From assembly GCA_016182555.1 (NCBI GenBank), contig JACPGJ010000008.1:455411-519410 (forward strand): 64,000 bases of DNA, given 5' to 3'. Shown here in pieces: positions 6,263 to 62,589 of this stretch (positions are counted from its first letter, which is position 1; each line of letters begins with the position of its first letter). The notes under the pieces are model-generated. The model did not search any database. It saw only the letters and a list, made by a program, of their open reading frames with translations, and was not told the DNA's origin. This DNA comes from Candidatus Kerfeldbacteria bacterium. Its GTDB lineage: Bacteria > Patescibacteriota > Patescibacteriia > UBA9570 > XYC2-FULL-38-9. Made by a program: the position numbers and the translations under genes.

Positions 6263-6324
6263 GTACCCCATTGTATTGAGAATTGGAACACCTTGATTCA
6301 GGATTTGAAGCTGTGATTTACTGT
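6263..6324. repeat. ~60-bp intergenic repeat, copy 2 of 3
   Basis: gtaccccattgtattgagaattggaacaccttgattcaggatttgaagctgtgatttactgt between the ATPase and Fic genes. Confidence 0.65.
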
Positions 6325-6342
6325 CTTGCCTCAAATTGTAAA

Positions 6343-7311
6343 TTAACCATTTTGTAACAGTGCGTAAGACTCAAGCAATGCATCATAGATAAATGATTCC
6401 AAAAAAATGTATTTCTCTTCCAGTTGCGCTCGCTGTAAATAAGTATAATACGCTTGTTTCTTCTCTTGCTTAATTAACACTGGAGGTAATCCATATTGCA
6501 GAGCTTGTGCATGCATGAGTAATCTTCCAACACGTCCATTGCCATCAGAAAACGGATGAATTTGTTCAAACTGGGCATGAGTTTTTGCCATGTGCATGAC
6601 AATATCTTCTTCAGATGAGTGCTGGAGATCCTGGCCAAACGTATACATTCGATCATCAATCTTCAAATAATTCGTCGTAGGAACATGCGAACCAACGATG
6701 CGTACCCCATGACGGCGGTACATACCTGCGTCAGATCGAATACCATTCATCAAAATGGAATGAATTTTCTTTATCCAATCTTCTGTTATTTGTTTTGGCT
6801 TTTTATGTTGTGTTAACCACTGCATCAAATTTCCCAGTGCAGCTTGATGATTTTTTGCTTCTTGATGCTCAACGACTGTTTTATCAGGAATGGTCACATT
6901 ATCAAAAATAACCGCTCGCACTTCCGGTTCAGTGAATGTACTCCCTTCAATACTATTCGTATGATATGTCAGTTCAAGGACAAATGTTTCATACAGATCT
7001 TGCCGTTGTACTATATACTGTAACGGATGAGGAAATTGTTTTTTCAGTTCCGCCACCCGTTGCTTTTTTACCAAAAGCTCAGAGTCCGTCACTTCCTTAA
7101 CACCCGTATATTCTTGATACAATAGATCAATCTTCGCTTGTGCAATTTTACGTGGTAAACTCTTCCCATTCACCCAACTATTGAGTGTGACAAAACTGAC
7201 CTGCAGCATTTGAGCAAGCTCTGTTTGCGTTTTACCGCTTACTTTCAAAATTCGTTGAATTTTTTGCTGTACTGTCATAAGTACAGTATAACAAACTTTA
7301 TAAAGAATCAC
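6343..7311 (-). CDS. Fic-family AMPylator fused to an N-terminal XRE-type HTH
   Basis: 322-aa ORF; Fic motif HPFSDGNGRVGRLL; inhibitory-helix-like TNSIEG upstream of it; N-terminal HTH (KTQTELAQMLQVSFVTLNSWVNGKSLP). Confidence 0.8.
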   Translation of the reverse strand: MILYKVCYTVLMTVQQKIQRILKVSGKTQTELAQMLQVSFVTLNSWVNGKSLPRKIAQAKIDLLYQEYTGVKEVTDSELLVKKQRVAELKKQFPHPLQYIVQRQDLYETFVLELTYHTNSIEGSTFTEPEVRAVIFDNVTIPDKTVVEHQEAKNHQAALGNLMQWLTQHKKPKQITEDWIKKIHSILMNGIRSDAGMYRRHGVRIVGSHVPTTNYLKIDDRMYTFGQDLQHSSEEDIVMHMAKTHAQFEQIHPFSDGNGRVGRLLMHAQALQYGLPPVLIKQEKKQAYYTYLQRAQLEEKYIFLESFIYDALLESYALLQNG

Positions 7312-7343
7312 AAGTTTTATAAAGTTTCAATACTCAATGGTAT

Positions 7344-7403
7344 GTACTGCATTGTATTGAAAATTGGAACACCATAATTCAAAATTTACGCCATTGGTTT
7401 AAG
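7344..7403. repeat. ~60-bp intergenic repeat, copy 3 of 3
   Basis: gtactgcattgtattgaaaattggaacaccataattcaaaatttacgccattggtttaagga upstream of the Fic gene. Confidence 0.6.
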
Positions 7404-7419
7404 GAATTGAATGAAATTT

Positions 7420-7448
7420 TTGACACCTGTTTAAATGCTAATTAGAAT
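7420..7448 (+). promoter_or_regulatory. sigma-70-type promoter TTGACA-N17-TAGAAT
   Basis: TTGACAcctgtttaaatgctaatTAGAAT about 45 nt upstream of the 7491 ORF. Confidence 0.45.
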
Positions 7449-7490
7449 ATATATATAATTTAATAGTGTATTAAACAAAAAACTAGCTAT

Positions 7491-8129
7491 ATGGAAAGAT
7501 ATAATCCTGACACAAGACAAATGCATGGCCCATTTGAAAAATTTCAATTACGAGATATCCATTGGAAAGATACATTACCTTATACATTGCAAAAAAAAGC
7601 AGAAAGGCTAGACCCCTATTTTGATGAGCAAACTAATGATTATTCAAATCAATACTTCCATCAAAATTTTATAATCAACAATGATCAATTGGATTTTTTT
7701 GGATTAAGAAAAGTTTTTAAAAAAAAGGATCTTCAAATATTACTTAGAATCTGTAACAATGATTCGTTTATTCATCTTAAAATAGAACTTAATAAATATA
7801 CTGACAATTATTGTGTAATCACTGCTATAAAAAAAGAACGTGGATCAGCTACTTTACCTTCTAAATTGGGTATACAATTATATGAAAAATTGTTTGATTT
7901 CTTACAAGATTTAGCTGATACAACAGGTAAGCCGGTTACGCATATTGTAAGACGTGCTCCTGAAGAAATGAGCGATACACCTCTTACAATAGAACGTTGG
8001 AATCAAATATTTTTTCCTATTCTAAATAAAAATGGGAGAGTATACACCCTCGATCCAGAAACTGAACATACTTTTGAACATACTTTTCTACCTGAATCAA
8101 AAAAACCAAATACTCTGCAAGCTGCCTGA
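7491..8129 (+). CDS. hypothetical protein (AT-rich, probably foreign)
   Basis: 212-aa ORF, markedly lower GC than neighbours, no recognisable motif; abuts the tRNA-Glu 3' side. Confidence 0.5.
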   Translation: MERYNPDTRQMHGPFEKFQLRDIHWKDTLPYTLQKKAERLDPYFDEQTNDYSNQYFHQNFIINNDQLDFFGLRKVFKKKDLQILLRICNNDSFIHLKIELNKYTDNYCVITAIKKERGSATLPSKLGIQLYEKLFDFLQDLADTTGKPVTHIVRRAPEEMSDTPLTIERWNQIFFPILNKNGRVYTLDPETEHTFEHTFLPESKKPNTLQAA

Positions 8130-8214
8130 AAAAAACTGTTATCTTCTATACACGCAAGTGCGATAGATAAAAAATGTCTAAAACGCATCAAAAAATGGAA
8201 TTTTTTGTTGTCTG

Positions 8215-8286
8215 TACCCGCACGGGGAATCGAACCCCGATTATCGCGTTGAGAACGCGGCGTCCTAACCGTTAGACGATGCGGGC
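8215..8286 (-). tRNA. tRNA-Glu (anticodon CTC)
   Basis: Minus-strand sequence gcccgcatcgtctaacggttaggacgccgcgttCTCaacgcgataatcggggttcgattccccgtgcgggta folds as a cloverleaf: 7-bp acceptor, TTCGATT T-loop, anticodon loop ttCTCaa. Confidence 0.8.
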
Positions 8287-8375
8287 AAGGGGTTTTGTGC
8301 CGCCATGCAACACAAAAAACGCAGATGGATTCTACGTTTTTTTGATTGCTCAGTCAAGACGGACGGACAAAATTA

Positions 8376-9704
8376 TTATTGTTGAAGATATTGTGGCTGT
8401 ATCTCGTCTTTCCAATAATCGACACTGAAAAAATCATCCGGTGGAATATCTGTGATATTTTTTTGTTCATCAACAGTTGCGTGAGAAACTACTTGATTGT
8501 CTCGATACATGGTGTATTCCAGAATAGTATCATCCGTGGTATTAATAACAAATTCCACAGCTGGATCTGGTAAGCTTTCTTCTTCATTAAAAAATACATT
8601 TGACAGTTGATAACGTACACGTATGATTTCTTTACCAAGGTATTGTTCTTTTTCTTGTGACACCGGTTCTCCTAATTCATCAATACGCTGACGAATACTT
8701 AATGGATCCATAAATTGAGTTTCATATATATTTTCAATAGCGCGACCGAGAAAATCTTTTTGAACTGTTTTTTTATACTCTTCACGAAATGTTTCCAATT
8801 CTTCATTGCTAACAGTGCGAACCTGTATCGTATCAATATTCACTGCATACACTGCTGAGGAACGATCTCCGCTGACTATTTGAAATAAATGATCAGATGT
8901 ATTTTCCCTATGCGCGTTATATCGCATATCGCTGATATTTAGTGATACTTGATGTTGATATTTACCCTCAGCATCAACCCATGAATTAACGACGGATATG
9001 GAATCAATAAATCCAGATGCGCCAGTAGACATTTGTATATTCTCGTCATTTATTGATTCAGCGGTCGTCCAGGTAATGGATAGATCGCCACGAGGATCAT
9101 CTAAATGTTGTGCATGAACATTATTGAGAGCTAATGTTGTACCATTCATGAGTAATTTGGCAGTTCCCATATCAAAACCATCGCTACATTCAAATAAAAG
9201 ATTGACGTCCTTTACCGATGTAGTTTTTTCTTGTTGATAATCCACACGACAGCTTTGATTATCAACAGCGGAATAAAGAGTAGAACCTGTGAGCAAATCA
9301 AAACGCACATTGTTCCCCTGTTGCCAAATAGACACCTTCCCCATAAATCCACTGATTTCCTGATAACGAAATTCTGTAGAATTATTTGGATAAAAGGTAT
9401 TGTCAATAGATTTTGCAAGAACCTGGTTAATGTATATTCCATTTTTTGTATGTGGCCATGAACCAAATTCAATGATGCCAAAGACCGCAATAGCAAGCAC
9501 AACAGGAATGACACCAAAAGAAAATTTGTGTAATTTCATAAAACGAAATGGATGATGAGTAAATAGTGATGAAGAAATTAAATTTTCTTTCTGAAGAATG
9601 CGCGCAATGCGTTGTTGTAATTCACCTTGAAACACTTGGCGTTGTGGAATGATTTCACGTTGTAAAATTCGTGTTAATCGTTTGTTGAAGAAAAATTGTT
9701 TCAT
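8376..9704 (-). CDS. membrane-anchored protein, putative anti-sigma factor
   Basis: 442-aa ORF overlapping the ECF sigma gene by ATGA; ~60-aa cytoplasmic N-terminus, one TM (FGVIPVVLAIAVFGIIEF), large extracytoplasmic domain. Confidence 0.55.
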   Translation of the reverse strand: MKQFFFNKRLTRILQREIIPQRQVFQGELQQRIARILQKENLISSSLFTHHPFRFMKLHKFSFGVIPVVLAIAVFGIIEFGSWPHTKNGIYINQVLAKSIDNTFYPNNSTEFRYQEISGFMGKVSIWQQGNNVRFDLLTGSTLYSAVDNQSCRVDYQQEKTTSVKDVNLLFECSDGFDMGTAKLLMNGTTLALNNVHAQHLDDPRGDLSITWTTAESINDENIQMSTGASGFIDSISVVNSWVDAEGKYQHQVSLNISDMRYNAHRENTSDHLFQIVSGDRSSAVYAVNIDTIQVRTVSNEELETFREEYKKTVQKDFLGRAIENIYETQFMDPLSIRQRIDELGEPVSQEKEQYLGKEIIRVRYQLSNVFFNEEESLPDPAVEFVINTTDDTILEYTMYRDNQVVSHATVDEQKNITDIPPDDFFSVDYWKDEIQPQYLQQ

Positions 9705-29674: not shown

Positions 29675-29865
29675 ATCGTTTTCCCTTGAAACTATTAATA
29701 AATGAATCGAATAATAGTGTACCAACTCTTGGGCAATGAGTCAAGCGCTGGTGGTTGCCATTTGACCAGGTAGTGACTGTGGATAACTATCTTGACCAAA
29801 TAGCCGAGTTTCAGTATAGTTTCGCAACTCTTGGGTTCAAATTCCTGTTTTTTTACTGTTTCCGA

Positions 29866-29896
29866 ACCCAAAAAACCGCGGCACCACTTCGGTGCC
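29866..29896 (-). terminator. rho-independent terminator, minus-strand orientation
   Basis: Minus strand reads ggcacc-gaagt-ggtgcc followed by gcggTTTTTTggg; lies upstream of rplU and on the far side of the GC-rich insert from the DUF192 gene. Confidence 0.5.
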
Positions 29897-29917
29897 AATG
29901 TGCTTGTGGAGGTTGTG

Positions 29918-30364
29918 ATGTCTCGCCATCTGTCCCGTGTTCGTTTTTCTACTCAGATGATTCTGGCTGGCATGATGCTGATTGCGGTACTCGCCGTGAC
30001 CTGTTTCCTCGTTCCGAATGCCCGAGCGGCCGGCTCGAGCTTCGTGATCGAAACCGCATTCGCCAGCCAGGTGCTTCCGGAAACCCTGCGCACTAACGTG
30101 ACGATTCCGGAAGGGTATCAATGCCAGGCAGGCACATTCGCGAACTACCTCGACGAGCAATCCGGTGAGACCTTCAACACCGCGCGCGTCGGTGGCTCGT
30201 TCGCATTCCTGCTCTCGACGCCCACCCCGGGGATGGTATACATCTGCGAATCCTTCCCCGACGGTTGGTACTACGGCGAGGACGGCTGGGAGTACTACGA
30301 CGATCCGGTGTTCTGCTATGGGCGGACATCGGGTCGTTCGTTGAGAACCCTCATCGGCGAATGA
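29918..30364 (+). CDS. small secreted protein, Trp/Tyr/Gly/Asp-rich, in a GC-rich insert
   Basis: GGAGG 6 nt upstream of ATG; MSRHLSRVRFSTQMILAGMMLIAVLAVTCFLVPNARAAG signal peptide; about 60% GC versus about 45% in flanks; the plus-strand track ORF 29831..30364 is trimmed to this start. Confidence 0.6.
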   Translation: MSRHLSRVRFSTQMILAGMMLIAVLAVTCFLVPNARAAGSSFVIETAFASQVLPETLRTNVTIPEGYQCQAGTFANYLDEQSGETFNTARVGGSFAFLLSTPTPGMVYICESFPDGWYYGEDGWEYYDDPVFCYGRTSGRSLRTLIGE

Positions 30365-30605
30365 TCGCAGACCCACCGCGCTGGAACCAGGTTCCGGCGC
30401 CGTTATCTCCTGCCCAGAAAAGGCGACCACACTATGCGCGTCAAAGGTCGCCACGTGCTCCTGCTCCATGCCCTTCTTCATTCCTCCTCGTACGACGTAC
30501 CTGTAATGGGCAACGTCAAACGAGCGTTCGATCAGTCGTTCCAACGGCAGACGAACAAAATGAAGCGGGGCTCTTTTTTTTACTTACCATTCAACATAAC
30601 AAACA

Positions 30606-45095: not shown

Positions 45096-46286
45096 TTATG
45101 CAATAATCTTAGTTATCACTCCTGCGCCAACGGTTCGGCCACCCTCACGGATAGCAAAGCGTTGTTTTTCTTCCATAGCGACCGTCTTTCCAAGTTTGAC
45201 AGTAAAGGTAATCGTATCGCCAGGCATGACCATTTCGGTGCCTTCTTTCAATATCACCTCACCAGTCACATCAGTTGTACGCATATAGAATTGTGGCTTG
45301 TATCCTTTCGTGAATGGCGTAGCGCGTCCACCTTCTTCTTTAGAAAGAATATAGACTTCAGCTTCAAATTCCGTGTGTGGGGTAATGCTACCTGGTTTTG
45401 CGAGCACTTGACCACGTTCTACTTCATCTTTCTTTGTACCACGAAGCAATAACCCAGCATTGTCACCAGCCAAACCTTCATCTAACTGCTTGTTAAACAT
45501 TTCAATACCAGTCACAACAGTCTTTTTGGTGTCCATCAAACCAACAATCTCTAATTCTTCGTTAATTTTTACCTTACCGCGTTCAATACGACCAGTCACC
45601 ACCGTTCCACGACCTTCAATAGAGAAGATGTCTTCAATAGGCATCAAGAATGGCTTGTCGGTATCCCGTTCTGGTTGAGGGATATATTCATCCAACGTTT
45701 TCAACAATTCCACAATCGGCTTCGCTGCTTCTGCATCTGTTGGGTTTTCCAACGCTTTCAAGGCTGAACCACGAATAATAGGTGTTTCATCGCCAGGGAA
45801 TTCGTATTTATTGAGCAAGTCGCGAATTTCCACTTCAACCAACATCAACAATTCTTCATCTTCGACTTGGTCACATTTGTTCAAGAATACCACAATCGAA
45901 GGCACACCAACCTGACGAGCCAACAAAATATGTTCGCGTGTTTGAGGCATTGGGCCGTCTGTTGCAGAAACAACCAAAATCGCGCCGTCCATTTGAGCCG
46001 CACCAGTGATCATGTTCTTCACGTAGTCAGCATGTCCTGGACAGTCAACGTGTGCGTAGTGACGGTTATCCGTTTCGTATTCAACGTGGGAGGTATTAAT
46101 GGTAATACCACGCTCGCGTTCTTCTGGAGCGTTATCAATATCTGCAAATCCTTTGTTTTGAGCGGATTTTCCTTGAGCGTTACAGACCGCCAAAATAGCG
46201 GCTGTAGTTGTGGTTTTTCCATGGTCGACGTGACCAATGGTACCAACGTTGACGTGCGGTTTGGCGCGATTAAACTTGTCTGCCAT
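45096..46286 (-). CDS. tuf: elongation factor Tu
   Basis: 396 aa; [21 protein letters not shown]. Confidence 0.97.
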
Positions 46287-46496
46287 ACATTAGCAATTTG
46301 TTAATAAAGTAAAATAAGTCAATCAAACTCTTCGCACAAAGAATGTACGAAGGTAGAAATAACGATAATAGTTTTACGAGAAGCTGTCAAGTGTTTGGCA
46401 GGCTTCGATGCAAAACAGAATGATTATAACGACAAAGCAATAAAATGACAAGAATTACTGGTGTTTATGGTTTGTGGATAAGTAGACCAAATTTCA

Positions 46497-46961
46497 TTAT
46501 CTTTTCTCTCTCAAGCGACCAGAAAGAAATGGAGATGGAAGATAATCTTCTATGGTAGCAACTATCACTCGAGATTTATCAGTATTTGAATAGAGTGTGA
46601 GCATTGGCTCTACGCTCGCCATTTGGCTAAATTCAAATATAATTTGCCGGCACCGACCGCACGGACCACTTGGTGCATCGACAGACATACCGTCGTTGCG
46701 GACAATAGTTGCAATCGCGGTGAATTCACGCTCCCCTGCCATATTGGCCGCGAGGAAGGCCGCAACTTCAGCGCACGCAGTCATGCCGGTTGTCGAGAGC
46801 GTGACGTTTGCACCCGTATAGATTTTCCCACTTTTTCCGCGGATGGCGGCACCAACAACAAAATTCGACCGAGGATTCCAGCCTCGCTCCATCGCTTTTT
46901 CTGCAGCGTTGAGTAATTCTTGTTGTTCCGGTTCAAGTGCTTCCAATCGTTTTTCGGTCAT
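46497..46961 (-). CDS. cdd: cytidine deaminase (homotetrameric type)
   Basis: Trimmed to MTEKRLEAL; zinc ligands CAE and PCGRCRQ; noticeably higher GC than neighbours. Confidence 0.75.
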   Translation of the reverse strand: MTEKRLEALEPEQQELLNAAEKAMERGWNPRSNFVVGAAIRGKSGKIYTGANVTLSTTGMTACAEVAAFLAANMAGEREFTAIATIVRNDGMSVDAPSGPCGRCRQIIFEFSQMASVEPMLTLYSNTDKSRVIVATIEDYLPSPFLSGRLREKR

Positions 46962-47007
46962 TGTGGTGTATTTAATACTATAGTGAAAAAAGTATATCAG
47001 AAATAGA

Positions 47008-48270
47008 TTATAACTCCCAGGCACGAATATGCTCTATGCCATTCCGGTTCCCCAGTGAAATATCATCCAAGCTGATCACTATTTTTTTATACTGATCTCG
47101 AATGGCTTCCAAATTTCCAAATTCTCTTTCTATGGTTTCCGTAGAATCCAATATATACGCTACTTGCACATAGATGCGCTCCTTTCCTTTTTCCAGAACA
47201 AAGTCTACCTCTTTATTACGCAACTCCCCCACCCGCACCGTATAGCCCTGCGCTTTGTAATGAAGAAAAATCGCATTCTCCAGAATATGCCCAATGTTGC
47301 TATCTGCTTGCTGCAAACCTTGCGAACGCAATGCCAAATCATTCAAATAATATTTTTTTGTGTTGGTGAACACGGCCTTTCCGCGAATATCAAAACGGTC
47401 GACGGCGTGAATAAGATACGTTTGCTCCAGATAGGTGAGATATTTCCCCAACGTTTCATTATTGGTGGGGGTGTGGTTACTATTCAAATAACGAACAATC
47501 TTTTCTGTAGAAAACAGACTGCCGATGTTGCCCGCAATAAATTGAAAAAGCTGTTCGAGCAACACCGCATTTTTTACTGCATATTTTTGCACCACATCTT
47601 GAAACAAAATAGTATTTACTAATGCGTGAATATAATGCGTTTGAATCTCTGTGTCTTTTTGCAAATGATATAATTCCGGCAAACCACCCAATTCCAAATA
47701 GCGCACAAACTGTTCTTTGGTTTTTGGTACATCAAAAAATTGCGTAAATTCATCAAACGAAAACGATTGCACTTCAAACGGCACATACCGGCCACTTAAA
47801 TAGGTAGAGAGTTCTGAAGAGAGCATGGTGGAATTTGAACCGCTGATATACACCTCATACGCATCACGGTAATCTTGCGAAAAAGAATTGATTGCCCTCT
47901 CCCACTGATCAATTTCTTGCACCTCATCTATAAAGAGAAAAACTTTACCTTTCACCTGTTCTGTTTTTTTGTAGAGCTCAACGAGTTTTGCTAAATCGGT
48001 GTGCGTTTTCACCATTTCAAAATCGACGATCTCTTTATTGAGATAGAAAATATTTTTCGGGTTCACGCCTTGCGCAATCAATTCTTTCATTATTTGACGC
48101 AGCAAATAGCTCTTTCCCACGCGCCGCTGCCCCATAATGACTTTTATTAAACCATTATTGATGAAGGGTTTTATGCGTTCAAGATAGGTTGTTCTGGTTA
48201 AACCCGTTGGTATTTCTTGATTTTTCTCCCAAAAATTGGATTTTTTGAGATATTCTAATATTTCGTTCAT
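47008..48270 (-). CDS. AAA+ ATPase of the DUF4143/COG1373 family (second copy)
   Basis: 420 aa; Walker A GQRRVGKSYL, Walker B LFIDEVQEI, sensor ISGSNSTML; C-terminal DUF4143-like region. Confidence 0.8.
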   Translation of the reverse strand: MNEILEYLKKSNFWEKNQEIPTGLTRTTYLERIKPFINNGLIKVIMGQRRVGKSYLLRQIMKELIAQGVNPKNIFYLNKEIVDFEMVKTHTDLAKLVELYKKTEQVKGKVFLFIDEVQEIDQWERAINSFSQDYRDAYEVYISGSNSTMLSSELSTYLSGRYVPFEVQSFSFDEFTQFFDVPKTKEQFVRYLELGGLPELYHLQKDTEIQTHYIHALVNTILFQDVVQKYAVKNAVLLEQLFQFIAGNIGSLFSTEKIVRYLNSNHTPTNNETLGKYLTYLEQTYLIHAVDRFDIRGKAVFTNTKKYYLNDLALRSQGLQQADSNIGHILENAIFLHYKAQGYTVRVGELRNKEVDFVLEKGKERIYVQVAYILDSTETIEREFGNLEAIRDQYKKIVISLDDISLGNRNGIEHIRAWEL

Positions 48271-48346
48271 ATTTGAATTTTATGTTATTTTTACATATAT
48301 TTCAAGTATACTTGAATTTTATGCATCTGTCAATGAATACATAACT

Positions 48347-48375
48347 TTGACACAAGAAATATTGGGGGTATGATA
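48347..48375 (+). promoter_or_regulatory. sigma-70-type promoter TTGACA-N16-TATGAT
   Basis: TTGACAcaagaaatattgggggTATGAT about 70 nt upstream of the RelA/SpoT-like gene. Confidence 0.4.
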
Positions 48376-48446
48376 AAATTATGAAATACTGATGTAGTAT
48401 ACAGAAGTCGAATAATTTATTTTTTTATTCTTAGAAATAAGCCAAA

Positions 48447-49502
48447 ATGTCATTCGCGAAACCATCAAAAGTGTCCAGAAGTCGAATAAATAAAGCCGGT
48501 AAAACTCTTAAAAAAGAGATTATTAATTCAGATTTTGAATCTGCAGTAAAGTTAGCTGATAATTGGAGAGCGTGTCATGCCTATCCCATTAATACCTTCC
48601 AATCAACATTGAGAACCAAGCTTCGAAAATATCAAAATGAACCTATCGTAGCGCAACGTCTTAAACGCATGCCAACAATTATAGATAAACTGCAACGATA
48701 TCCAAACATGCAGCTAACAACAATGCAAGATATTGGAGGTATTAGGGCAATTCTAGGATCAATCGAAGATGTTTATAAACTAGCAAAAGACTACAGAGAG
48801 AACAAACGCCTTCCTCATGAACTTTATAATGAGAATAATCATATTCAGACTCCGAGAAATGAAGATGGCTATCGTAGTTTGCATCTAATGTACAAATACC
48901 GAAATCCACAAGCAAAAGAATATGATGGTCTACGAGTAGAGCTACAAATACGTACAAAAACCCAACATATTTGGGCTACAGCAGTTGAAACTATGGGAAC
49001 ATTTCTAGGACAAGCGCTTAAATCAAGACAGGGGGACAAAGACTGGCTCGATTTTTTTGCCACAGTATCATCTGCATTTGCTTGCATTGAGAAAACACCA
49101 GTATTACCTAGACATCAAAACATGACAAAACTAGAAATATTTAAGGCGGTTGCAAACACAGAAAAAAAACTCGGCGCATTAGAAAAAATGAATGCATTCT
49201 ATAAAGCCGCAGATGAAATCACAGGAAAACGCAAAAGTGAAGGGTCATCGTATCATCTAATAATACTAAACTCATTAGAAAAAACTGTTGAAGTAAAACC
49301 ATATAGTCGAGATGAGTTCAAAAAGGCAGTTGCAGATTACGCTCAAATTGAAGCTGAGGCAGTGAAGGGGAAAAAAATCGAACCAGTTCTCGTATCTGCT
49401 GGTCCATTAAGCACGCTAAAACGCGCATATCCCAACTTTTTCCTTGATATTTCTGAATTCTGTAAAGCTGTAGCAGAAATAGTAGATAAAACAAAAAAGT
49501 AA
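48447..49502 (+). CDS. standalone RelA/SpoT synthetase-domain protein (toxSAS-like), 351 aa
   Basis: Rel/Spo nucleotidyltransferase motifs DIGGIRAI, GYRSLHL, ELQIRTKTQHIWATAVETMG; basic N-terminus KVSRSRINKAGKTLKK; ~130-aa C-terminal extension; AT-rich. Confidence 0.75.
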   Translation: MSFAKPSKVSRSRINKAGKTLKKEIINSDFESAVKLADNWRACHAYPINTFQSTLRTKLRKYQNEPIVAQRLKRMPTIIDKLQRYPNMQLTTMQDIGGIRAILGSIEDVYKLAKDYRENKRLPHELYNENNHIQTPRNEDGYRSLHLMYKYRNPQAKEYDGLRVELQIRTKTQHIWATAVETMGTFLGQALKSRQGDKDWLDFFATVSSAFACIEKTPVLPRHQNMTKLEIFKAVANTEKKLGALEKMNAFYKAADEITGKRKSEGSSYHLIILNSLEKTVEVKPYSRDEFKKAVADYAQIEAEAVKGKKIEPVLVSAGPLSTLKRAYPNFFLDISEFCKAVAEIVDKTKK

Positions 49503-49550
49503 AAAGAGCCGGCGAGATGCCGACCCTTTTTATTTTCTGCGACTCAAAAT

Positions 49551-51689
49551 TTATTCTTCGTCTTCAGTGGCGACTGAACCTCCACGCGCTTCAATCACTT
49601 CTTTGGCCACATTCTTTGGCACTTCAGCATATTTCTCGAATTCCATGGAATAGTTTGCACGACCTTGAGACATCGAACGAAGGCTGGTCGCATAACCAAA
49701 CATTTCGGCCAATGGGACTAAGGCACGCACAACTTTCACAGTTCCGCGGTCGGTCATTTCCTGAATTTGTCCACGTTTAGAATTGATATCGCCCATCACA
49801 TCACCCATGAACTGTTCGGGAGTCATCACTTCTACTTTCATAATCGGTTCCAACAATACTGGGTCGGCTTTACGTGCCGCATTACGGAACGCTTTTGAAC
49901 CCGCAATTTTGAACGCCGCTTCTGAAGAGTCGACTTCATGGTACGAACCATCAAGCAAGGTGACGCGAATATCTAACAATGGATAGCCAGCCAAAATACC
50001 GCGATCCAGTGCTTCACGAATACCTTTTTCAACAGCAGGAATGTATTCATTTGGAATAGATGCTCCTTTAATCGCATTCTTGAATTCAAAATGTTCAACC
50101 TCTTCACCCTCTTCCACTTCGCTCTCCAACACCTGTAATGGTTCAACTTTCAATACAACATGACCATATTGACCGCGACCACCAGTCTGTTTCACATACT
50201 TCTCTTCTCCTTCTGCGGAGCGTTTAATCGTTTCTTTATAAGCCACCTGTGGTTTACCGGCAGTGGCTTCCACCCCAAATTCGCGCTTCATGCGTTCAAT
50301 AATCACTTCCAAATGCAGTTCACCCATACCAGCCAAAATAGTTTGATTGGTTTCTTCGTCTGAACGCACACGCAAGGATGGGTCTTCATCTGTCAGGCGC
50401 GCGATAGCCATACCCATTTTTTCTTGGTCAGCTTTAGTTTTCGGTTCAATGGCAATAGAGATCACCGGTTCTGGTGCGATAATTGGTTCCAAAATAATTG
50501 GATGATCTTCATCGCATAATGTGGTGCCAGTTTTTGCATCTTTCACACCGACTGCTGCGGCGATATCACCGGCATGAATTTCACTAATTTCTTCACGAGA
50601 ATTTGCATGCAAACGTACCAAACGCGAGATGCGTTCTTTTTTACCTGTCGCCATGTTGAGCACATACGAACCCGATTTCAATACGCCGGAATAGACGCGA
50701 ATGAAAATGAGTTTGCCCACAAATGGATCTGAAGCAATTTTGAAAGCAAGTGCTGCCAATGGTTCGCCATCTTCTGGTTTACGAGAAATTTTTTGTTCTA
50801 AATCGTCTGGGTCTGAACCAACCGTTGGTGGAATGTCGAGTGGAGATGGCAAATACGCAACCACCGCATCCAACATAAACTGCACGCCTTTGTTTTTGAG
50901 CGCTGAACCGCAGAGTACTGGAACAACGTTGTTTGCAATCACGGCTTGGCGCAATACTCGGTGAATATCTGCTTCAGATGGTTCATTGCCTTCCAAGTAC
51001 GCGTTCATGAGCGCTTCATCATTTTCGACAATCGCTTCAATGAGCTGTGTGCGGTACATGGCTGCGCGTTCTTTTTCTTCTGCCGGAATGTCTACTTCTT
51101 CAAATTCACGACCCATTTCATCTTTATAGATCACGGCTTTTTGACGAATGAGATCGATGATGCCTTGGAATGTATCAGCCGCACCAATAGGCAGCTGAAT
51201 TGGATGCGCGTTTTTGGTGAGCCGGTCATGGATCATCCCCAAATCTTTGTAGAAATCTGCACCTGTGCGATCCATTTTGTTAATAAAACACATGCGAGGA
51301 ACTTTGTATTCTTCTGCATAATGCCAGTTAGTTTCGGATTGCGGTTCCACACCGGCAACACCGTCGAATACCACCACCGCGCCGTCGAGCACGCGCAGAG
51401 AACGCTTCACTTCTACGGTAAAGTCGATGTGGCCAGGAGTATCGATGAGGTTGATTTTATGCTCTTTCCAAAAACAGGTGGTCGCTGCAGCGGTAATGGT
51501 GATACCACGTTCTTGTTCCTGTTCCATCCAGTCCATGGTTGCTTCACCTTCATGCACTTCACCAATTTTGTGAGTCTTGCCGGTGTAATACAACACCCGT
51601 TCAGACACCGTCGTTTTTCCGGCGTCGATGTGTGCAATGATACCGATGTTCCGCGTATCTTGTAATGGATATACTTTTTCTTCAGACAT
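49551..51689 (-). CDS. fusA: elongation factor G
   Basis: 712 aa; [17 protein letters not shown]. Confidence 0.97.
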
Positions 51690-54050: not shown

Positions 54051-54210
54051 TTCGATTTTGATTTTCATAAAATGAAGAGACGGCGCTAGAAAGTTATCCA
54101 CAGTCGAATTTATCTCTATCCTTAGCTAAAAATGATATTCGGCGAAAAATAGACGGCTGCACTTAGCCAATAACATAGTGGACTTTTTGCTATATCCGCG
54201 CATATACTCT

Positions 54211-54392: not shown

Positions 54393-55982
54393 ATGAAAAG
54401 AAAAAATATTATCTCCTTTTGTGCCATATTGAGCATTATAGGATTACTATCCGCGTACTATCTTTACACCAGCAAGGGTTGTGGAGTATCTTCAAAAATA
54501 TGTATCGAGTCTCAACGTATAAGTATACAAATTGATATTCACAAAATTGGAAACAATGGAGTAGTAACATTTGGTGTTGGTTTAACAGATAATACCGGTA
54601 CTCGATTAACAGGAACAGAACGCGATTTTCATGAACAATGGAATTTTGGTGATGAAACATCACAACCAATTCAAGAGGCCCATGCTGATGGAGCTTTGCC
54701 CACATACGAAGCAAGCTACGAAAAAAAATATAGATATACAAAACCCGGAACATATACTGCATACATGCAAATGTTAGATGCAGAAAATGAAGTGCTGCGA
54801 AAATCAAATACTATTACCGTCACAATTCCGGAATCTTCATTCACTACAGCAGCGGAAACGACAACAGACGCTACAGATAGCGCAACACAACCAGAAGAGC
54901 AACGCGGTACACTCTTCTATGCCACAAATACAAAAAAACAACTCCTTATTTCTACCTATAACCCTGATACACAAGAGACACCAACTACCCAAACCATCCC
55001 GTTTGAAGAACAGATAAACCAAACCGGTAGAAATTCTTCCGGTGGAAACGATGCGGTTCAATTCAACCCCACAACACAGGAAATATTTATTTCTACACAA
55101 GGCAAAAGTGAATCAGCCTTTGAAAATTGCATAAATACAGATGGAACCTGCACCTCGCGTATATACAAAATCACTGCCAACAGCACAACACCAACTATTC
55201 TGTACGAATCAGAAAATCCACCAATCAATTGGGTAGTCAACCCTTATGATGATTCGTTGCTACTCAGTTCAACCGTTGAGGGAAAACAGATACTCACAAA
55301 ATTGAATGCGCAAGATGGTTCGGTGGTGTTTACTCAGGAATATATTATTCCCAAAAATACTGGTCTTAAAAATCTTGTGCTCAGCAATGATGGGAAAATA
55401 CTCTACCAAGCTTCGATAGAATCAGAAGATGGAAAAGCAATCAACGAAACTCTCCGTTTACGTGAATTTGATACCACAACCGGCGAGCTTACAGAAGTAG
55501 AAATATTTCAATTCAACTCAATTGACGCAACAACCACTATTTCTCCTAATAACAAATGGATTGCATTTTATGTAAACGCCTACGAAGCGCCACAATTAGT
55601 CATATGGGAGATTAAGGGGAAACAACCGCCTTCAATAAATCCATATCCATACACATCAAAAACAACGGGAGAAATTAGTAATTTCAATCTTTCCTGGTCT
55701 GGTGACAGCAAACGTCTATTCTACATGCGTGCTGATGGTTTAGTGTATTTCGACACCACAACCGGAACACATTCATTTGTCACAACAAGTAAAGAACGCA
55801 GAGAAACGCCATTCGTGTTAGAAGCAACGGGCGCCGAATCAGAAAACTATGTCTTCTATGTTTCTTCTGTAGACAGAACCATTGTACTGTACAACACCGC
55901 AATAGGAAAATATATCACCACGCCATTTTCTATGGTGCAAGATAATGAATCAGTGAATATTAACGGAGTCGCCTGGTATTAA
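54393..55982 (+). CDS. membrane-anchored extracellular protein with N-terminal PKD-like domain
   Basis: 529 aa; N-terminal TM; WNFGDETSQ...YTKPGTYTAYMQMLD PKD-like motif; long Thr/Asn-rich C-terminal region. Confidence 0.7.
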   Translation: MKRKNIISFCAILSIIGLLSAYYLYTSKGCGVSSKICIESQRISIQIDIHKIGNNGVVTFGVGLTDNTGTRLTGTERDFHEQWNFGDETSQPIQEAHADGALPTYEASYEKKYRYTKPGTYTAYMQMLDAENEVLRKSNTITVTIPESSFTTAAETTTDATDSATQPEEQRGTLFYATNTKKQLLISTYNPDTQETPTTQTIPFEEQINQTGRNSSGGNDAVQFNPTTQEIFISTQGKSESAFENCINTDGTCTSRIYKITANSTTPTILYESENPPINWVVNPYDDSLLLSSTVEGKQILTKLNAQDGSVVFTQEYIIPKNTGLKNLVLSNDGKILYQASIESEDGKAINETLRLREFDTTTGELTEVEIFQFNSIDATTTISPNNKWIAFYVNAYEAPQLVIWEIKGKQPPSINPYPYTSKTTGEISNFNLSWSGDSKRLFYMRADGLVYFDTTTGTHSFVTTSKERRETPFVLEATGAESENYVFYVSSVDRTIVLYNTAIGKYITTPFSMVQDNESVNINGVAWY

Positions 55983-55998
55983 AATCGACAACTATTGA

Positions 55999-56346
55999 TT
56001 GAGAAAATGTATGAAAAATAAAAAATGGTTTAAGGTTCTTGTTGTATTTGTAATCATTATTGTTATTATAGCGATTATTATTTTTTTAGGATTTCAAAAA
56101 CATACGCTGAACACTACAGTGCTCTCTTGCACTGAAAAAAATCTCGTAACAACAACAGGAAAATATCGCTTTCCACCGCAGTGGGGATTAGAAGGATACA
56201 AAATTCTTGTTCATCCTCAACCAGGAGGAATGTTTGATGCGATTTATCCAAATCAAATATGTAATAGTGAATCAAATTTCGTTCATGAAATCATCGCTAT
56301 AGAATACACGGGGTTGGGTTATATTACAGCGATTTACGTTCGTTAA
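55999..56346 (+). CDS. small membrane-anchored hypothetical protein
   Basis: 115 aa; N-terminal TM (VLVVFVIIIVIIAIIIFLGF). Confidence 0.45.
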   Translation: MRKCMKNKKWFKVLVVFVIIIVIIAIIIFLGFQKHTLNTTVLSCTEKNLVTTTGKYRFPPQWGLEGYKILVHPQPGGMFDAIYPNQICNSESNFVHEIIAIEYTGLGYITAIYVR

Positions 56347-56368
56347 TTTTTATGGGGTATTTGAATTT

Positions 56369-56827
56369 ATGAAAATGAAAATTGTATCCACGATAGGTTC
56401 GATATTTATCATCATCGCTCTACTACTCTCTTACTATTTATATACTGGCAGAAGCTGCGGTGTATCTTCAAAAATATGTATAGAATCACGAAAAATAAGT
56501 GTGGGTACGAGTGTGGAAAGAATTGGAAAAAATGGAAAAGTGATCTTTAATATCGGCTTAATAGATAATACCCGCACATATGACATTGACATGCAACTAC
56601 GTGATGAATGGAATTTTGGTGATGAGAATTCTACAACGCAATTAAGCGAGGAAGTACATACCGGTAGAATGATGCCAGATTATTTAATTGCCAGCTATAC
56701 AAAAGAATATACCTACACCAAGCCAGGAACATATACCGTTTTATTGAAAATCATTGATGCTACACACCACACAACATACACAGCAGAACCACTGAGCGTT
56801 ACGATTCCCGAATCTGCATTCAAGTAA
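56369..56827 (+). CDS. PKD-like domain protein, paralog of the N-terminus of 54393..55982
   Basis: 152 aa; aligns to the first ~150 aa of the upstream gene (LLSxYYLYTxxxCGVSSKICIESxxIS...WNFGDE...YTKPGTYTV...TIPES). Confidence 0.65.
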   Translation: MKMKIVSTIGSIFIIIALLLSYYLYTGRSCGVSSKICIESRKISVGTSVERIGKNGKVIFNIGLIDNTRTYDIDMQLRDEWNFGDENSTTQLSEEVHTGRMMPDYLIASYTKEYTYTKPGTYTVLLKIIDATHHTTYTAEPLSVTIPESAFK

Positions 56828-58227: not shown

Positions 58228-58638
58228 ATGGATGAGGACGTTAAATGGTTACTACAAAAATTGGTTACCTGGACAAAACTCAAGCTGAAAATACATATTT
58301 TACAAGATACTCATCTTGTTTACTTTCACGAAAGAGAAATCTGGTGGTGTTCCCTAGGCATAAATATAGGATATGAACAAAACGGAAAAAATCAGTATTT
58401 TGAACGACCAGTGTTAGTGGTAAAAAAATTCAACAGATATTTACTATGGGCAGTTCCCTTAACCAGTAAACAAAAATCGGGAAAATTTTATTATGAAACA
58501 TGGTATGAAGGAAAAAAATACTCTATCATTTTGTCTCAAATGAGAGCAATCAGTAGCAAACGACTGTTGAGAAAAATACGCACTGTACCGCAGTCAGAAT
58601 TTACTGAGGTAAAAAAACAGATAAAACTCTTTTTATAA
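58228..58638 (+). CDS. MazF/PemK-fold endoribonuclease toxin homolog (solitary)
   Basis: Track ORF 58201 starts at a GTG inside a hairpin and is trimmed to the ATG at 58228; EREIWWCSLGINIGYEQNGK...ERPVLVVKKFN...LWAVPLTSK...SQMRAISSKRLLRKIRTV matches the MazF/PemK pattern. Confidence 0.6.
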   Translation: MDEDVKWLLQKLVTWTKLKLKIHILQDTHLVYFHEREIWWCSLGINIGYEQNGKNQYFERPVLVVKKFNRYLLWAVPLTSKQKSGKFYYETWYEGKKYSIILSQMRAISSKRLLRKIRTVPQSEFTEVKKQIKLFL

Positions 58639-61461: not shown

Positions 61462-62589
61462 TCAGTAGCTGGCGATGTCGTCGGGATTATTATTCTCCAC
61501 GACGCAGTCCGTCATTGAGGGCTCGGCATTGCGAAGATACATTCCTCCACCACTTTCGCCCGCCGAATTTTCTGTCACTTCAACCCGAGTGAGCGTCGGG
61601 TTTGCGTGATCAATGTAGACCCCACCACCCCACAAATCAGCCTCGTTGCTGTGAATGGTGAGGTCTGTAAGTTCAACTCCCGCATCCTGTCCCACGTAGA
61701 TTCCTCCACCTCCGGCCACAGCGTAATTGTCCATGAAGGAAGAATTCGTCACCACGCCGGATGAATAGCGACCGAAAGACACCCCCATGCCATAGTAGCC
61801 GACGTTGGAGTTGAAAGAACATTCAGTCACCTCAACATCAGCATCCTGATTGACATGAATACCCGCGCCGTTATAGGTCACGAAGTTCTCGGCAAAAAAT
61901 GACTCTGTGACCGTCAGTTCAGCGTGTTCACCAGCATAGATACCACCTCCGTCGCCGTTGGCTACACACCAAGTGAATATGCTGTGCTGAAACGCAGCCC
62001 GCGTGAACTCGGTGTAGACACAACCTCCGTCGCCACCAGTGGTTGTAGTGGAGTTAGTGAAGGTGACGTTCCTAAAAGTTGGATCGGCATATTCCCCGAT
62101 CCAGACTAACCCGCCATTTCCGCTCTCTCCATTAGTCAGGGTAAACCCATCCACAACTCCATCTTCCGTATACGCTGTGAATGACATTACTCGTCCCAAG
62201 AACTGAGCGTCGATCGTCGTCACCTCGGCGCCTTTGCTGGAGAGCAGCGTGAGTGCCTTTCCTCCGAAATGCAGGTCGTGTTCGAGATACGTCCCTGGGC
62301 CCACTGAAACAGTGTCCCCATCGTTAGCCGCGTCGATCGCGGACTGGATAGTGACGTAGCAGTTTTCCTGCACAGCCACAGTTCCCGTGTCGCTCACGCC
62401 GTCACAGTTCTGGTCTACGCCATCGCATTCCTCTGCCGCACCGGGATGAATTTCCGGATTCGTGTCGTCGCAGTCGCCATCGTCCACGGTCCAGCCGTCC
62501 CCATCGATATCGGGATCGTCACAAGACGAAATCCCGCTCAACAGCGTGCAAACGCTCGAAAAAACAACGGTGAAAAACAGGTGCCTCAT
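61462..62589 (-). CDS. parallel beta-helix lipoprotein with N-terminal Cys/Asp-rich MopE-like motif, in a GC-rich insert
   Basis: 375 aa; signal plus lipobox LLSGISSC; DGDGWTVDDGDCDDTNPEIHPGAAEECDGVDQNCDG; repeated GGGIY/NxxxG beta-helix rungs; about 60% GC; GGAGG ribosome-binding site. Confidence 0.7.
   Translation of the reverse strand: MRHLFFTVVFSSVCTLLSGISSCDDPDIDGDGWTVDDGDCDDTNPEIHPGAAEECDGVDQNCDGVSDTGTVAVQENCYVTIQSAIDAANDGDTVSVGPGTYLEHDLHFGGKALTLLSSKGAEVTTIDAQFLGRVMSFTAYTEDGVVDGFTLTNGESGNGGLVWIGEYADPTFRNVTFTNSTTTTGGDGGCVYTEFTRAAFQHSIFTWCVANGDGGGIYAGEHAELTVTESFFAENFVTYNGAGIHVNQDADVEVTECSFNSNVGYYGMGVSFGRYSSGVVTNSSFMDNYAVAGGGGIYVGQDAGVELTDLTIHSNEADLWGGGVYIDHANPTLTRVEVTENSAGESGGGMYLRNAEPSMTDCVVENNNPDDIASY

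Follow-up and report, generated by a model that had tools for sequence, protein, structure and literature searches.

A lineage-specific insert with a predicted CapRel-type toxSAS gene in a variable slot between fusA and tuf of a Candidatus Kerfeldbacteria bacterium

Introduction

Hotspots of defence and accessory genes between core genes are known from pan-genome studies of E. coli and Pseudomonas. A described system close to one of the genes reported here is CapRel-SJ46 of the Salmonella prophage SJ46 (PDB 7ZTB, 9ERV; Zhang et al. 2022, PMC9712102). In this protein, R79 and R116 coordinate ATP, Y155 belongs to the G-loop, and A77, V338, L339, A341, and A351 are the autoinhibition interface residues. 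The YXXY neutralisation motif (Y352, Y355) blocks the ATP-donor site, and the Y355A mutation makes the protein constitutively toxic (PMC9712102). The pseudo-zinc-finger domain (pseudo-ZFD) differs between CapRel-SJ46 and CapRel-Ebc (PMC9712102). For a second gene, the closest described family is PDC-S01, a common, unvalidated candidate that combines an ATPase with a PD-(D/E)xK domain and ranks fourth in abundance among prokaryotic “defence” candidates (PMC12988326).

Here, we describe a locus in a 64,000-nucleotide stretch of a Candidatus Kerfeldbacteria genome, which will be called the window. Taken as a whole, the reading that we propose with good confidence is a lineage-specific 3.07-kb insert that occupies a recurrently used slot between fusA and tuf and carries three single-gene cargo units with proposed functions.

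Organization of the Locus

In the window, tuf and fusA are separated by a gap of 3,264 bp, which contains a cytidine deaminase gene (cdd), an AAA_14 + DUF4143 ATPase gene, and a divergent RelA/SpoT gene (rel). The three gene identities are backed by Pfam and NCBIfam. A preliminary description of this DNA had given the same layout, with a gap of ~3.2 kb, the same three genes, a divergent rel, and a 176-bp AT-rich region from which rel and the ATPase diverge, and all of this has proved exact. A 175-aa ORF with a GTG start is an over-extended version of cdd, and the 154-aa version with an ATG start has been taken. The features of the locus are:

45096–46286, minus strand, tuf (EF-Tu), native flanking core gene, 396-aa ORF
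46287–46481, minus strand, native upstream spacer of tuf, 195 bp, 32% GC, outside the insert
46473–46481, minus strand, TTATCCACA motif, which matches the DnaA-box consensus exactly and marks the border of the slot toward tuf
46482–49550, inserted DNA by synteny comparison, 3,069 bp, 38.7% GC, missing from the closest insert-free relatives
46497–46961, minus strand, cdd, 154 aa, with the ATG start used by the gene callers
47008–48270, minus strand, AAA_14 + DUF4143 ATPase, 420 aa
48271–48446, divergent intergenic promoter region, 176 bp, 22.7% GC
48447–49502, plus strand, RelA/SpoT gene (rel), 351 aa
49500–49532, bidirectional intrinsic terminator serving both rel (plus) and fusA (minus)
49551–51689, minus strand, fusA (EF-G), native flanking core gene, 712-aa ORF, Candidatus Kerfeldbacteria elongation factor G

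The RelA/SpoT Gene

Judged by sequence and predicted fold, the product of rel is reasonably likely to be a fused toxSAS toxin-antitoxin with a CapRel-type function. Residues 7–348 match positions 6–343 of the 349 in the PADLOC PDC-S33 profile PDLC04999 (8.6e-120), and the Pfam RelA_SpoT domain covers residues 70–178 (4.6e-16), as required of an N-terminal toxSYNTH domain. A phmmer comparison with CapRel (PDB 7ZTB/9ERV) gives a full-length match (4e-34), and at E ≤ 1 no toxSAS chain other than CapRel was recovered when rel was searched against PDB sequences. With the AlphaFold2 (AF2) model of rel (pLDDT 83), the top Foldseek match is again CapRel (TM 0.68–0.70, 356 columns), and among the Foldseek matches only the CapRel structures align to rel over its full length. 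The C-terminal half of the model consists of strands at 269–275 and 280–286, a helix at 288–306, a strand at 311–317, and then a helix at 336–350, and residues 265–320 contain no cysteine. This arrangement is that of a predicted pseudo-zinc-finger-like domain (strand-strand-helix-strand plus a terminal helix) of the autoinhibitory or sensor type.

R79, R116, and Y155 of CapRel-SJ46 correspond to R71, R100, and Y142 in rel, all three of which are invariant in 30 family members. The interface residues A77, V338, L339, A341, and A351 correspond to A69, V314, L315, S317, and A327, of which four are identical and the fifth is a conservative replacement.

The YXXY motif aligns to Y328-P-N-F331 in rel, where Y352 corresponds to Y328 and the second position keeps the aromatic ring without the hydroxyl. 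Across the rel family the first tyrosine of the lock never varies, and at least 90% of the members have phenylalanine at the second position. Given the constitutive toxicity of the Y355A mutant of CapRel-SJ46, a YxxF lock may operate in another way in the rel family. Within the family, conservation is high in the pseudo-ZFD-like domain and lowest in the helices at 216–262. Between CapRel-SJ46 and CapRel-Ebc it is the pseudo-ZFD that is reported to vary, so that the sensing surface or the trigger of rel may differ as well. An unlikely further possibility is that the PDC-S33 clade senses a conserved, non-capsid trigger, which would fit both the YxxF lock and a sensor domain conserved across phyla. 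No mention of PDC-S33 was found in the literature searched, and the link between this family and CapRel is drawn here from sequence and predicted fold, not from a database.

The gene could instead be a housekeeping small alarmone synthetase that makes (p)ppGpp for a stringent-type response. It would then be no toxin-antitoxin and have no part in defence; we regard this reading as improbable. In its favour, RelP/RelQ structures match the catalytic domain of rel, the NCBIfam YjbM family matches weakly, and the source databases label rel and its relatives GTP pyrophosphokinase or (p)ppGpp synthetase. However, the score against that family (GTPPhKinYjbM) is 58.1 bits, compared with a cutoff of 320. 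The housekeeping structures span only ~190 N-terminal residues of rel, whereas CapRel matches all 351; RelP, RelQ, and YjbM are single-domain proteins of ~200–230 aa, and rel has an additional conserved C-terminal half of ~160 aa. The retained autoinhibition interface also argues against a housekeeping enzyme. High conservation in different phyla extends over the entire protein; this would be unusual for an arms-race sensor and counts in favour of the housekeeping reading, while the distribution of the gene has the pattern of an accessory gene. Rel is missing from this site in close relatives, and its homologues (more than 3,800 at ≥60% identity, across phyla) are patchily distributed, with 108 plasmids and 21 viral contigs among their locations. 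They stand alone in unrelated gene contexts, and the closest ones are found in other CPR phyla. A gene of Salmonella phage SJ46 is 29.6% identical to rel over 97% of its length. A fused CapRel-type protein thus remains the preferred assignment.

The ATPase and the Cytidine Deaminase

The ATPase matches both Pfam AAA_14 (5e-32) and DUF4143 (2e-18) above the cutoffs, and residues 22–419 match the PADLOC PDC-S01 subtype PDLC04787 over the full length (1.4e-136). The Walker A and B motifs are intact. In the C-terminal part, E354, D356, E360, K361, and Q369 are invariant in the subfamily, in which Q-V-A replaces the E-x-K of the canonical PD-(D/E)xK motif. A fold search places the archaeal AAA+ proteins 2FNA and 2QEN, ORC/Cdc6, and the STAND NTPases nearest, with a similarity that is generic, and a PDB profile search with the ATPase returned no matches. 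A metagenome scan with the ATPase alone found one relative, at 32%. The ATPase homologues stand alone, and the closest ones belong to other CPR phyla, where the surrounding genes are unrelated. Homology and the PADLOC candidate status of the two families (PDC-S33 and PDC-S01) make rel and the ATPase candidate defence genes; for the ATPase, a defence role is possible and is put forward tentatively.

The translation of cdd has the CAE and PCxxC zinc/catalytic motifs. It scores 88.2 bits against NCBIfam PRK05578 (cutoff 74), also matches Pfam dCMP_cyt_deam_1, and aligns with PDB structures of cytidine deaminases (CDA) at 1e-18, end to end with the housekeeping enzyme. The PADLOC search gave no match for cdd. 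In a search of representative sequences, the best matches are 36–48% identical, and there are few named clusters (Chloroflexota). By sequence, cdd is an intact cytidine deaminase of the homotetrameric type and is probably a pyrimidine-salvage passenger.

Cdd follows the ATPase on the same strand after 46 bp, no promoter-like or terminator-like site is found between the two genes, and cdd is probably co-transcribed with the ATPase. Nucleotide-deaminating defence enzymes are known, and together with this arrangement they would favour a functional two-gene module, for example a deaminase effector controlled by the ATPase that alters cytosine nucleotides on infection. Such a module seems quite improbable, given that no cdd neighbour is present in the two closest groups of ATPase homologues or in the other ATPase loci fetched, and that cdd has no PADLOC match, passes the ordinary cytidine deaminase cutoff, and can be aligned with housekeeping structures along its entire length. 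Co-transcription with a passenger gene is therefore preferred.

Insertion between fusA and tuf

The closer relatives have been gathered by protein search and contig look-ups; in a scan of a genome collection with EF-G, the identity among the matches listed was at most 66%. The product of tuf in the window is 85–89% identical to EF-Tu of the Kerfeldbacteria relatives, and the closest available relative is 85% identical in EF-G. Three Kerfeldbacteria relatives with EF-G 78–80% identical (L089/90, L091/92, and L093) have empty fusA-tuf spacers of 233, 178, and 238 bp, and the insert-free relatives keep the same upstream gene order (HhH-GPD/AhpC/Sod/M50/S12/S7). Two other relatives have unrelated cargo at the site. 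In L094/L095 it consists of four unknown ORFs and an AcrB-type transporter, and in L088, from a sister lineage, it is a 62% GC segment with a 73-aa ORF containing two TM segments. Together with the window, three different cargos have been found at the slot, as in a variable hotspot. An insertion between fusA and tuf is almost certain from these comparisons. The preliminary description named, as grounds for its own refutation, the presence of the three genes at this site in all related genomes, and the Kerfeldbacteria relatives do not have them there.

That fusA and tuf are normally adjacent, as the preliminary description assumed, holds for most of the bacterial loci that were fetched and have tuf following fusA (median gap ~72 bp; 2 of 46 above 300 bp), but interruptions of the str operon are commoner in CPR bacteria than it supposed.

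The alternative that the three genes are ancestral Kerfeldbacteria synteny, with the empty sites arising by secondary deletion, is very unlikely and has been largely refuted. It could draw on the near-native composition of the three genes and on the similar hairpin that follows fusA in the window, L088, and L094, by which an occupied slot could be old. Against it, no homologue of rel, the ATPase, or cdd is found at the site in the relatives, and the sister lineage L088 carries a different cargo. The empty sites fall in both subclades of the EF-G tree, a single-protein neighbor-joining (NJ) tree without support values, and, because the closest relative is only 85% identical in EF-G, the distinction between gain and loss, its timing, and its direction rest on this tree. 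In the empty sites TTATCCACA begins 0–12 nt past the fusA stop without any scar, and both rel and the ATPase have their nearest homologues in the unrelated contexts of other CPR phyla noted above. Insertion therefore remains the preferred reading.

An assembly or binning artefact, that is, a chimeric contig, has a negligible chance of explaining the junctions. In its favour, the sequence is a metagenome-assembled genome and one Logan contig ends near the tuf start. Against it, the 598-kb NCBI contig and the assemblies of two independent read sets (SRR12113422 and SRR12113419) all contain the rel-fusA junction, the junction from cdd to the native spacer, including TTATCCACA, is also found in a Logan contig (L001 251–259), and a base-by-base alignment with the spacers of relatives is obtained for each flank.

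Borders and Expression Signals

In relatives without an insert, the whole fusA-tuf spacer aligns with the tuf spacer of the window; in L094 and L088, the tuf-proximal spacer does so. It contains the conserved promoter-like blocks TATAATC and CTTGACAG, with promoter-like sites on the minus strand at 46451–46423 and 46390–46362. TTATCCACA is invariant in 6 of 6 aligned Kerfeldbacteria sequences and begins 15 nt past the cdd stop in the window. The window holds three copies of the DnaA box against 0.88 expected, and 4 of 100 shuffles reach three, which is too weak to add to the conservation across genomes.

The divergent region has a predicted near-consensus promoter on each strand, the two standing back to back, TTGACA-17-TATACT at 48333–48305 (minus) and TTGACA-16-TATGAT at 48347–48374 (plus), each with 11/12 matches. 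A 27-nt direct repeat (D2) is located at 48258–48284 and 48297–48323. The terminator at 49500–49532 has a 14-pair stem between A and T tracts (-26.1 kcal/mol, z = -6.1). Similar hairpins after fusA are found in L094 and L088 and are lacking in the empty-site relatives; the terminator may belong to the architecture of the slot and not to the cargo. A sub-threshold Rfam sRNA match that overlaps the L088 terminator has been dismissed, and nothing was found within the island at the Rfam gathering thresholds.

None of the features of an integrase-mediated genomic island (an integrase or recombinase, a tRNA or att target, flanking direct repeats) has been found. The insert consists of the three genes only, with no mobility gene, integrase, or recombinase; there is no tRNA near it, and a search for direct or inverted repeats at its borders, the former suggested by the preliminary description, was negative. 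AAATTT near both junctions has been dismissed as a border repeat, being a chance occurrence in AT-rich DNA. As neither an integrase nor a repeat was found, the simplest guess is that the insert entered by homologous recombination between conserved flanking sequences. The slot may also be a site of site-specific cassette exchange and not just a permissive gap, since three independent cargos share the 0–12-nt interval with a similar terminator hairpin on one side, the invariant TTATCCACA on the other, and no integrase in cis; this is an unlikely possibility.

The suggestion that the DNA is mobile or defence-related is supported, as two of the three genes give full-length matches to PADLOC candidate families and rel is a homologue of the phage-sensing CapRel in sequence and predicted structure; the caveat is that no mobility gene, tRNA, or flanking repeat was found. 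The GC content of cdd is 0.488, compared with a mean of 0.439 (sd 0.046) for the genes of the window (z = +1.1), and the other two genes are mildly AT-richer (z = -1.0 and -1.5). The reported contrast between a GC-rich cdd and AT-rich neighbours is correct in direction and only mild in size. In composition and codon usage none of the three genes is significant (all |z| < 2), and mixed composition is a weak argument for multiple acquisitions, as all three lie within 2 sd of the window genes. On the other hand, the three genes never co-occur in the loci of relatives that were fetched, so that they appear to be independent single-gene units, and this non-co-occurrence makes separate acquisition plausible.

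Proposed Model

We propose that the slot runs, in the str/S10 region of Kerfeldbacteria, from the fusA stop (here with the terminator hairpin) to the tuf promoter spacer headed by TTATCCACA. Since tuf retains promoters in its spacer and fusA receives a terminator from the insert side, cargo could sit in the slot with no disturbance to these two essential genes. By homology, the C-terminal pseudo-zinc-finger domain of rel would hold the Y-P-N-F lock in the ATP-donor pocket of toxSYNTH, and binding of a phage protein to this domain would release it. The unlocked protein would then pyrophosphorylate the 3' ends of tRNAs, stopping translation and aborting the infection. The ATPase, with an AAA+/STAND-like core, a winged-helix region, and a PD-(D/E)xK-like C-terminal domain, may be an ATP-dependent nucleic-acid sensor or effector. 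Behind it, the presumably co-transcribed cdd would most likely be carried along as a pyrimidine-salvage gene.

If this is correct, accessory and defence genes turn over in a CPR bacterium with a reduced genome even inside the str/S10 cluster of translation genes. A predicted CapRel-type phage sensor would be placed in the Patescibacteria, whose phage defences are little characterised experimentally, and the PDC-S33 family could be re-labelled CapRel-like on sequence and fold evidence. The YxxF motif of this family is a natural variant of the lock on which the CapRel autoinhibition model could be tested. Cassette exchange, if true, would imply a trans-acting or unrecognised recombination system in CPR bacteria, or targeting linked to the DnaA box.

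Comparison with Known Systems

Like rel, CapRel-SJ46 is a single ORF of ~350–370 aa that joins a toxSYNTH domain at the N terminus to a three-stranded, cysteine-free, pseudo-zinc-finger-like domain and a terminal helix at the C terminus; in rel this C-terminal part is known from the model. CapRel-SJ46 is also a stand-alone gene on mobile elements, as are the rel homologues. The two are only ~29% identical and differ in the lock, which is YPNY in CapRel-SJ46 and YPNF, nearly invariant, in the rel family. Unlike in CapRel-SJ46, the C-terminal domain of rel is well conserved across phyla and the helical linker 216–262 is variable. The host of rel is a CPR bacterium, and rel is known here by its sequence and predicted fold. 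The PDC-S33 profile matches rel over its full length, but PDC-S33 is a computational candidate.

The ATPase shares with PDC-S01 (COG1373) the full-length match, both Pfam domains, and the habit of standing alone as a single gene, and has nothing distinctive. Cdd shares with the B. subtilis Cdd type (PDB 1JTK) the CAE and PCxxC motifs, the length, and the end-to-end alignment, but is divergent and follows a candidate defence ATPase in the fusA-tuf gap.

The known hotspots between core genes are likewise variable or empty across relatives, carry defence-type cargo, and have no integrase at the site. The present slot differs from those of E. coli and Pseudomonas in lying inside the str/S10 ribosomal-protein cluster of a CPR bacterium and in its confinement to 0–12 nt from the fusA stop to TTATCCACA. 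The insert is real and its components are of known kinds, and current understanding is not overturned; as a variable hotspot for defence genes, the fusA-tuf slot is tidy but otherwise ordinary.

Gene layout of the fusA-tuf gap

The gap between tuf and fusA is occupied by a real lineage-specific insertion, which places a deaminase gene and two single-gene systems of defence type in a recurrently used slot. The genes of the region are as follows, with the three inserted ones identified by Pfam and NCBIfam:

45096-46286, minus strand, tuf
46497-46961, minus strand, cytidine deaminase gene (cdd, 154 aa)
47008-48270, minus strand, AAA_14+DUF4143 ATPase gene (420 aa)
48447-49502, plus strand, RelA/SpoT-domain gene (rel, 351 aa)
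49551-51689, minus strand, fusA, followed by rpsG and rpsL on the same strand

The coordinates and gene content assigned to this island in the preliminary description, which was made from the sequence alone, agree with the ORFs and domain matches. The tuf-fusA distance of 3,264 bp is unusual, since the median spacing is ~72 bp among 46 fetched bacterial loci with tuf after fusA and only two of these exceed 300 bp. The junction between rel and fusA recurs in two independent read-set assemblies (SRR12113422 and SRR12113419).

The same description took a GC-rich cdd and two AT-rich genes as a sign of several acquisitions. Compared with 70 window ORFs (gene GC mean 0.439, sd 0.046), cdd has a GC of 0.488 (z=+1.1), the ATPase gene 0.391 (z=-1.0), and rel 0.367 (z=-1.5; GC3 z=-1.9), and the codon-usage scores of all three are unremarkable. 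The argument from mixed composition is weak because the deviations are small and codon usage is ordinary.

Synteny with Kerfeldbacteria relatives

The relatives used for comparison are contigs of the best EF-G matches from a protein-collection search; a scan of species-representative genomes gave no EF-G match above 66% identity among the matches listed. In three relatives (L089/L090, L091/L092, and L093; EF-G 78-80% identical), the order S12-S7-fusA-tuf-S10-L3 is found with gene-free fusA-tuf spacers of 233, 178, and 238 bp, respectively. The upstream order HhH-GPD/AhpC/Sod/M50 is common to the window and these empty-site relatives. In L094/L095 (EF-G 76%), the same position carries other cargo of ~6.9 kb, consisting of four unknown ORFs and an AcrB-family transporter. 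These ORFs (L094 10272-13604) overlap in tandem beside the RND transporter, encode 268-285 aa, and have no match in Pfam or PADLOC. The closest relative, L088 (EF-G 85%), has a 650-bp spacer. Its additional DNA has a GC content of 62% and carries, on the opposite strand, a two-TM ORF of 73 aa preceded by a AAGGAGGT Shine-Dalgarno sequence.

No counterpart of rel, cdd, or the ATPase was found at the site in any compared relative. Ancestral synteny shared among the relatives, which would have refuted an insertion, is thus not seen, and the proposal that inserted DNA separates fusA and tuf stands. In a simple neighbour-joining tree of a single protein, EF-G, built without support values, the window pairs with L088 as its sister, the empty-site L089 and L091 come next, and L094 groups with the empty L093 in another subclade. 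This distribution implies that occupancy was gained or lost more than once, with cargo differing even between sister lineages.

Borders of the insert and the slot

Alignment of the spacers identifies 46287-46481 as native DNA upstream of tuf. An invariant TTATCCACA opens this spacer, and after it come conserved TATAATC and CTTGACAG blocks that overlap promoter-like sites. The TTATCCACA motif starts 0, 8, or 12 nt past the fusA stop in the empty-site relatives and 15 nt past the cdd stop in the window. The inserted DNA is therefore 46482-49550 (3,069 bp).

At the fusA border, the stops of fusA and rel are 48 bp apart, and the DNA between them is predicted to fold into a strong terminator that works in both directions (-26.1 kcal/mol, z=-6). 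Since similar hairpins (AAAAGxGxCGG...CCGGCTCTTTTTA) follow fusA in the occupied L094 and L088 and are absent from the empty sites, the terminator may be a regular feature of occupied slots. The permissiveness of the slot is explained by tuf retaining its own promoters and fusA gaining a terminator. The close agreement in position among the cargos may reflect either targeting or selection. Gene content, tRNA, and repeat searches revealed no integrase, tRNA, or flanking repeat at the insert.

TTATCCACA corresponds to the DnaA-box consensus and has three perfect copies in the window (46473-46481, 29778-29786, and 54094-54102) against 0.88 expected; at least three copies arose in 4 of 100 shuffles. 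The copy that precedes tuf does not vary among six Kerfeldbacteria, and the remaining two are intergenic and lie beside compositionally odd or lineage-specific genes.

The RelA/SpoT-domain protein is of the CapRel type

Rel matches the PADLOC candidate defence family PDC-S33 end to end (8.6e-120), and its residues 8-347 align with PDB 7ZTB/9ERV (4e-34), the structures of CapRel-SJ46, a fused toxSAS toxin-antitoxin that senses capsid (PMC9712102). It is 29.6% identical to the SJ46 prophage gene over 97% of the length. Residue roles described for CapRel-SJ46 (PMC9712102) were mapped onto rel by alignment.

Functional residues of CapRel-SJ46 and their counterparts in rel
ATP-coordinating arginines: CapRel-SJ46 R79, R116; rel R71, R100
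G-loop tyrosine: CapRel-SJ46 Y155; rel Y142
Autoinhibition interface: CapRel-SJ46 A77, V338, L339, A341, A351; rel A69, V314, L315, S317, A327
YXXY lock: CapRel-SJ46 Y352, Y355; rel Y328, F331

At the second position of the lock, at least 90% of 30 aligned family members have Phe. Unlike in the published CapRel, the pseudo-ZFD-like domain is conserved in the rel family (majority fraction 0.78), and the most variable part is the helical linker 216-262 (0.59).

In the AlphaFold2 model of rel (pLDDT 83, pTM 0.81), the C-terminal domain is a cysteine-free strand-strand-helix-strand unit followed by a terminal helix. CapRel is the only full-length Foldseek match of this model (TM 0.68-0.70, 356 columns, 29% identity); housekeeping SAS enzymes match over ~190 residues only. 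The high rmsd (9-10 Å) could arise if the model and the open-state crystal structures differ in how the two domains are placed relative to each other. By homology (PMC9712102, PMC11782079), rel would likely act by pyrophosphorylation of tRNA 3' ends, being autoinhibited until freed by a phage protein.

The rel family comprises 3,834 homologue matches, of which the best 120 are all at least 59% identical, and it is found on 108 plasmids and 21 IMG/VR viral contigs. Named relatives belong to CPR phyla, Pseudomonadota, Nitrospirota, Omnitrophota, Chloroflexota, and one archaeon. The closest relatives (70-77% identical) have unrelated, CPR-like gene surroundings that contain neither the ATPase nor cdd, and rel therefore behaves as a horizontally mobile single-gene unit. 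In a Candidatus Gottesmanbacteria locus (L084 8001-9485, GCA_016186795.1), a NUDIX hydrolase gene lies 4 bp after a 70%-identical rel homologue, and the pair also occurs on two short Logan contigs. The hydrolase may act in trans against a CapRel-like toxin, as an antidote or by reversing its effect.

The ATPase, the cytidine deaminase, and their expression signals

The ATPase matches subtype PDLC04787 of the PADLOC candidate family PDC-S01 over its full length (1.4e-136). PDC-S01 proteins are described as ATPases fused to a PD-(D/E)xK domain and rank as the fourth commonest 'defence' candidate in prokaryotes, with experimental validation pending (PMC12988326); DUF4143 has been placed in the PD-(D/E)xK superfamily (PMC3424549). 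The Walker A (GQRRVGKS), Walker B (DE, 115-116), and sensor motifs are all intact. In the C-terminal part, E354, D356, E360, K361, and Q369 are invariant across the subfamily, with Q-V-A where E-x-K is expected. A PDB sequence search found no relative of the ATPase; the nearest matches of its predicted fold (pLDDT 88) are the uncharacterised archaeal AAA+ proteins 2FNA and 2QEN, followed by ORC/Cdc6 and STAND NTPases. Its homologues are at most 59% identical, the named ones mostly from Patescibacteria, and they stand alone in unrelated contexts.

Cdd is an intact homotetrameric-type cytidine deaminase with CAE and PCxxC motifs; it scores above the NCBIfam PRK05578 cutoff, and its alignment with CDA structures spans the whole length. 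Its relatives are only 36-48% identical, and it has no match in PADLOC. Because cdd lies 46 bp behind the ATPase gene with no promoter or terminator signal between, the two are probably co-transcribed. A functional pairing of ATPase and cdd has a low probability, and cdd is treated as a salvage passenger because the ATPase homologues have no cdd neighbour.

The region between the divergent ATPase and rel genes (176 bp, 22.7% GC) contains two back-to-back promoter-like sites, TTGACA-17-TATACT (minus strand) and TTGACA-16-TATGAT (plus strand), with 11/12 consensus matches each, together with a 27-nt direct repeat. A 20-nt repeat (AGTATACAGAAGTCGAATAA / AGTGTCCAGAAGTCGAATAA, 90% identical) is found at 48396-48415 in the rel 5' leader and at 48470-48489 in rel codons 8-14; it may have a regulatory role or be the scar of a duplication.

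Other accessory loci

Further accessory or compositionally odd genes have been observed in the window:

5039-6202, AAA_14+DUF4143 ATPase, PDC-S01 subtype PDLC04790 (9e-108), 21% identical to the island ATPase
6343-7278, Fic-domain protein matching PDC-S04/SoFic
7491-8129 and 8376-9704, two unknown genes, 30-36% GC
29837-30481, 214 aa, no Pfam match, GC 0.578 (z=+3.0), atypical codon usage
54393-56827, plus strand, three genes (529-aa PD40-like, 111-aa unknown, 152-aa PKD-like), GC 0.33-0.39
58228-58638, PemK/MazF-type toxin gene, GC 0.326
61462-62589, 375-aa beta-helix/MopE-motif protein, GC 0.54 (z=+2.2), atypical codon usage

The genes of 5039-9704 form a second low-GC accessory patch, which adjoins tRNA-Glu (8214-8286). 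The three genes at 54393-56827 lie between Peptidase_M50 and Fe-SOD, and look like another lineage-specific insert because these two are neighbours in L089 and L091, separated at most by a small gene for ribosomal protein L28. The toxin gene separates AhpC and HhH-GPD, a pair adjacent in L089.

The str operon is interrupted in other CPR lineages too. In a Paceibacterota locus (L083, 5645-11924), two genes, one of them a 2OG-Fe(II) oxygenase, lie between rpsG and fusA, and two small ORFs lie between fusA and tuf. In L007 (5950-8000), ~2 kb separates rpsG and fusA. In L026 and L012, tuf was not found downstream of fusA within 8 kb and ~2.9 kb of sequence, respectively.

Comparison with known systems

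The components of the insert are all of known kinds, namely a CapRel-type toxSAS (PDC-S33), a PDC-S01 protein, and Cdd, and variable hotspots between core genes are known too. Modestly new are the CPR host, the position within the str/S10 cluster, a very narrow slot adjoining a DnaA-box-like motif that is conserved, and a CapRel lock of the YxxF form.
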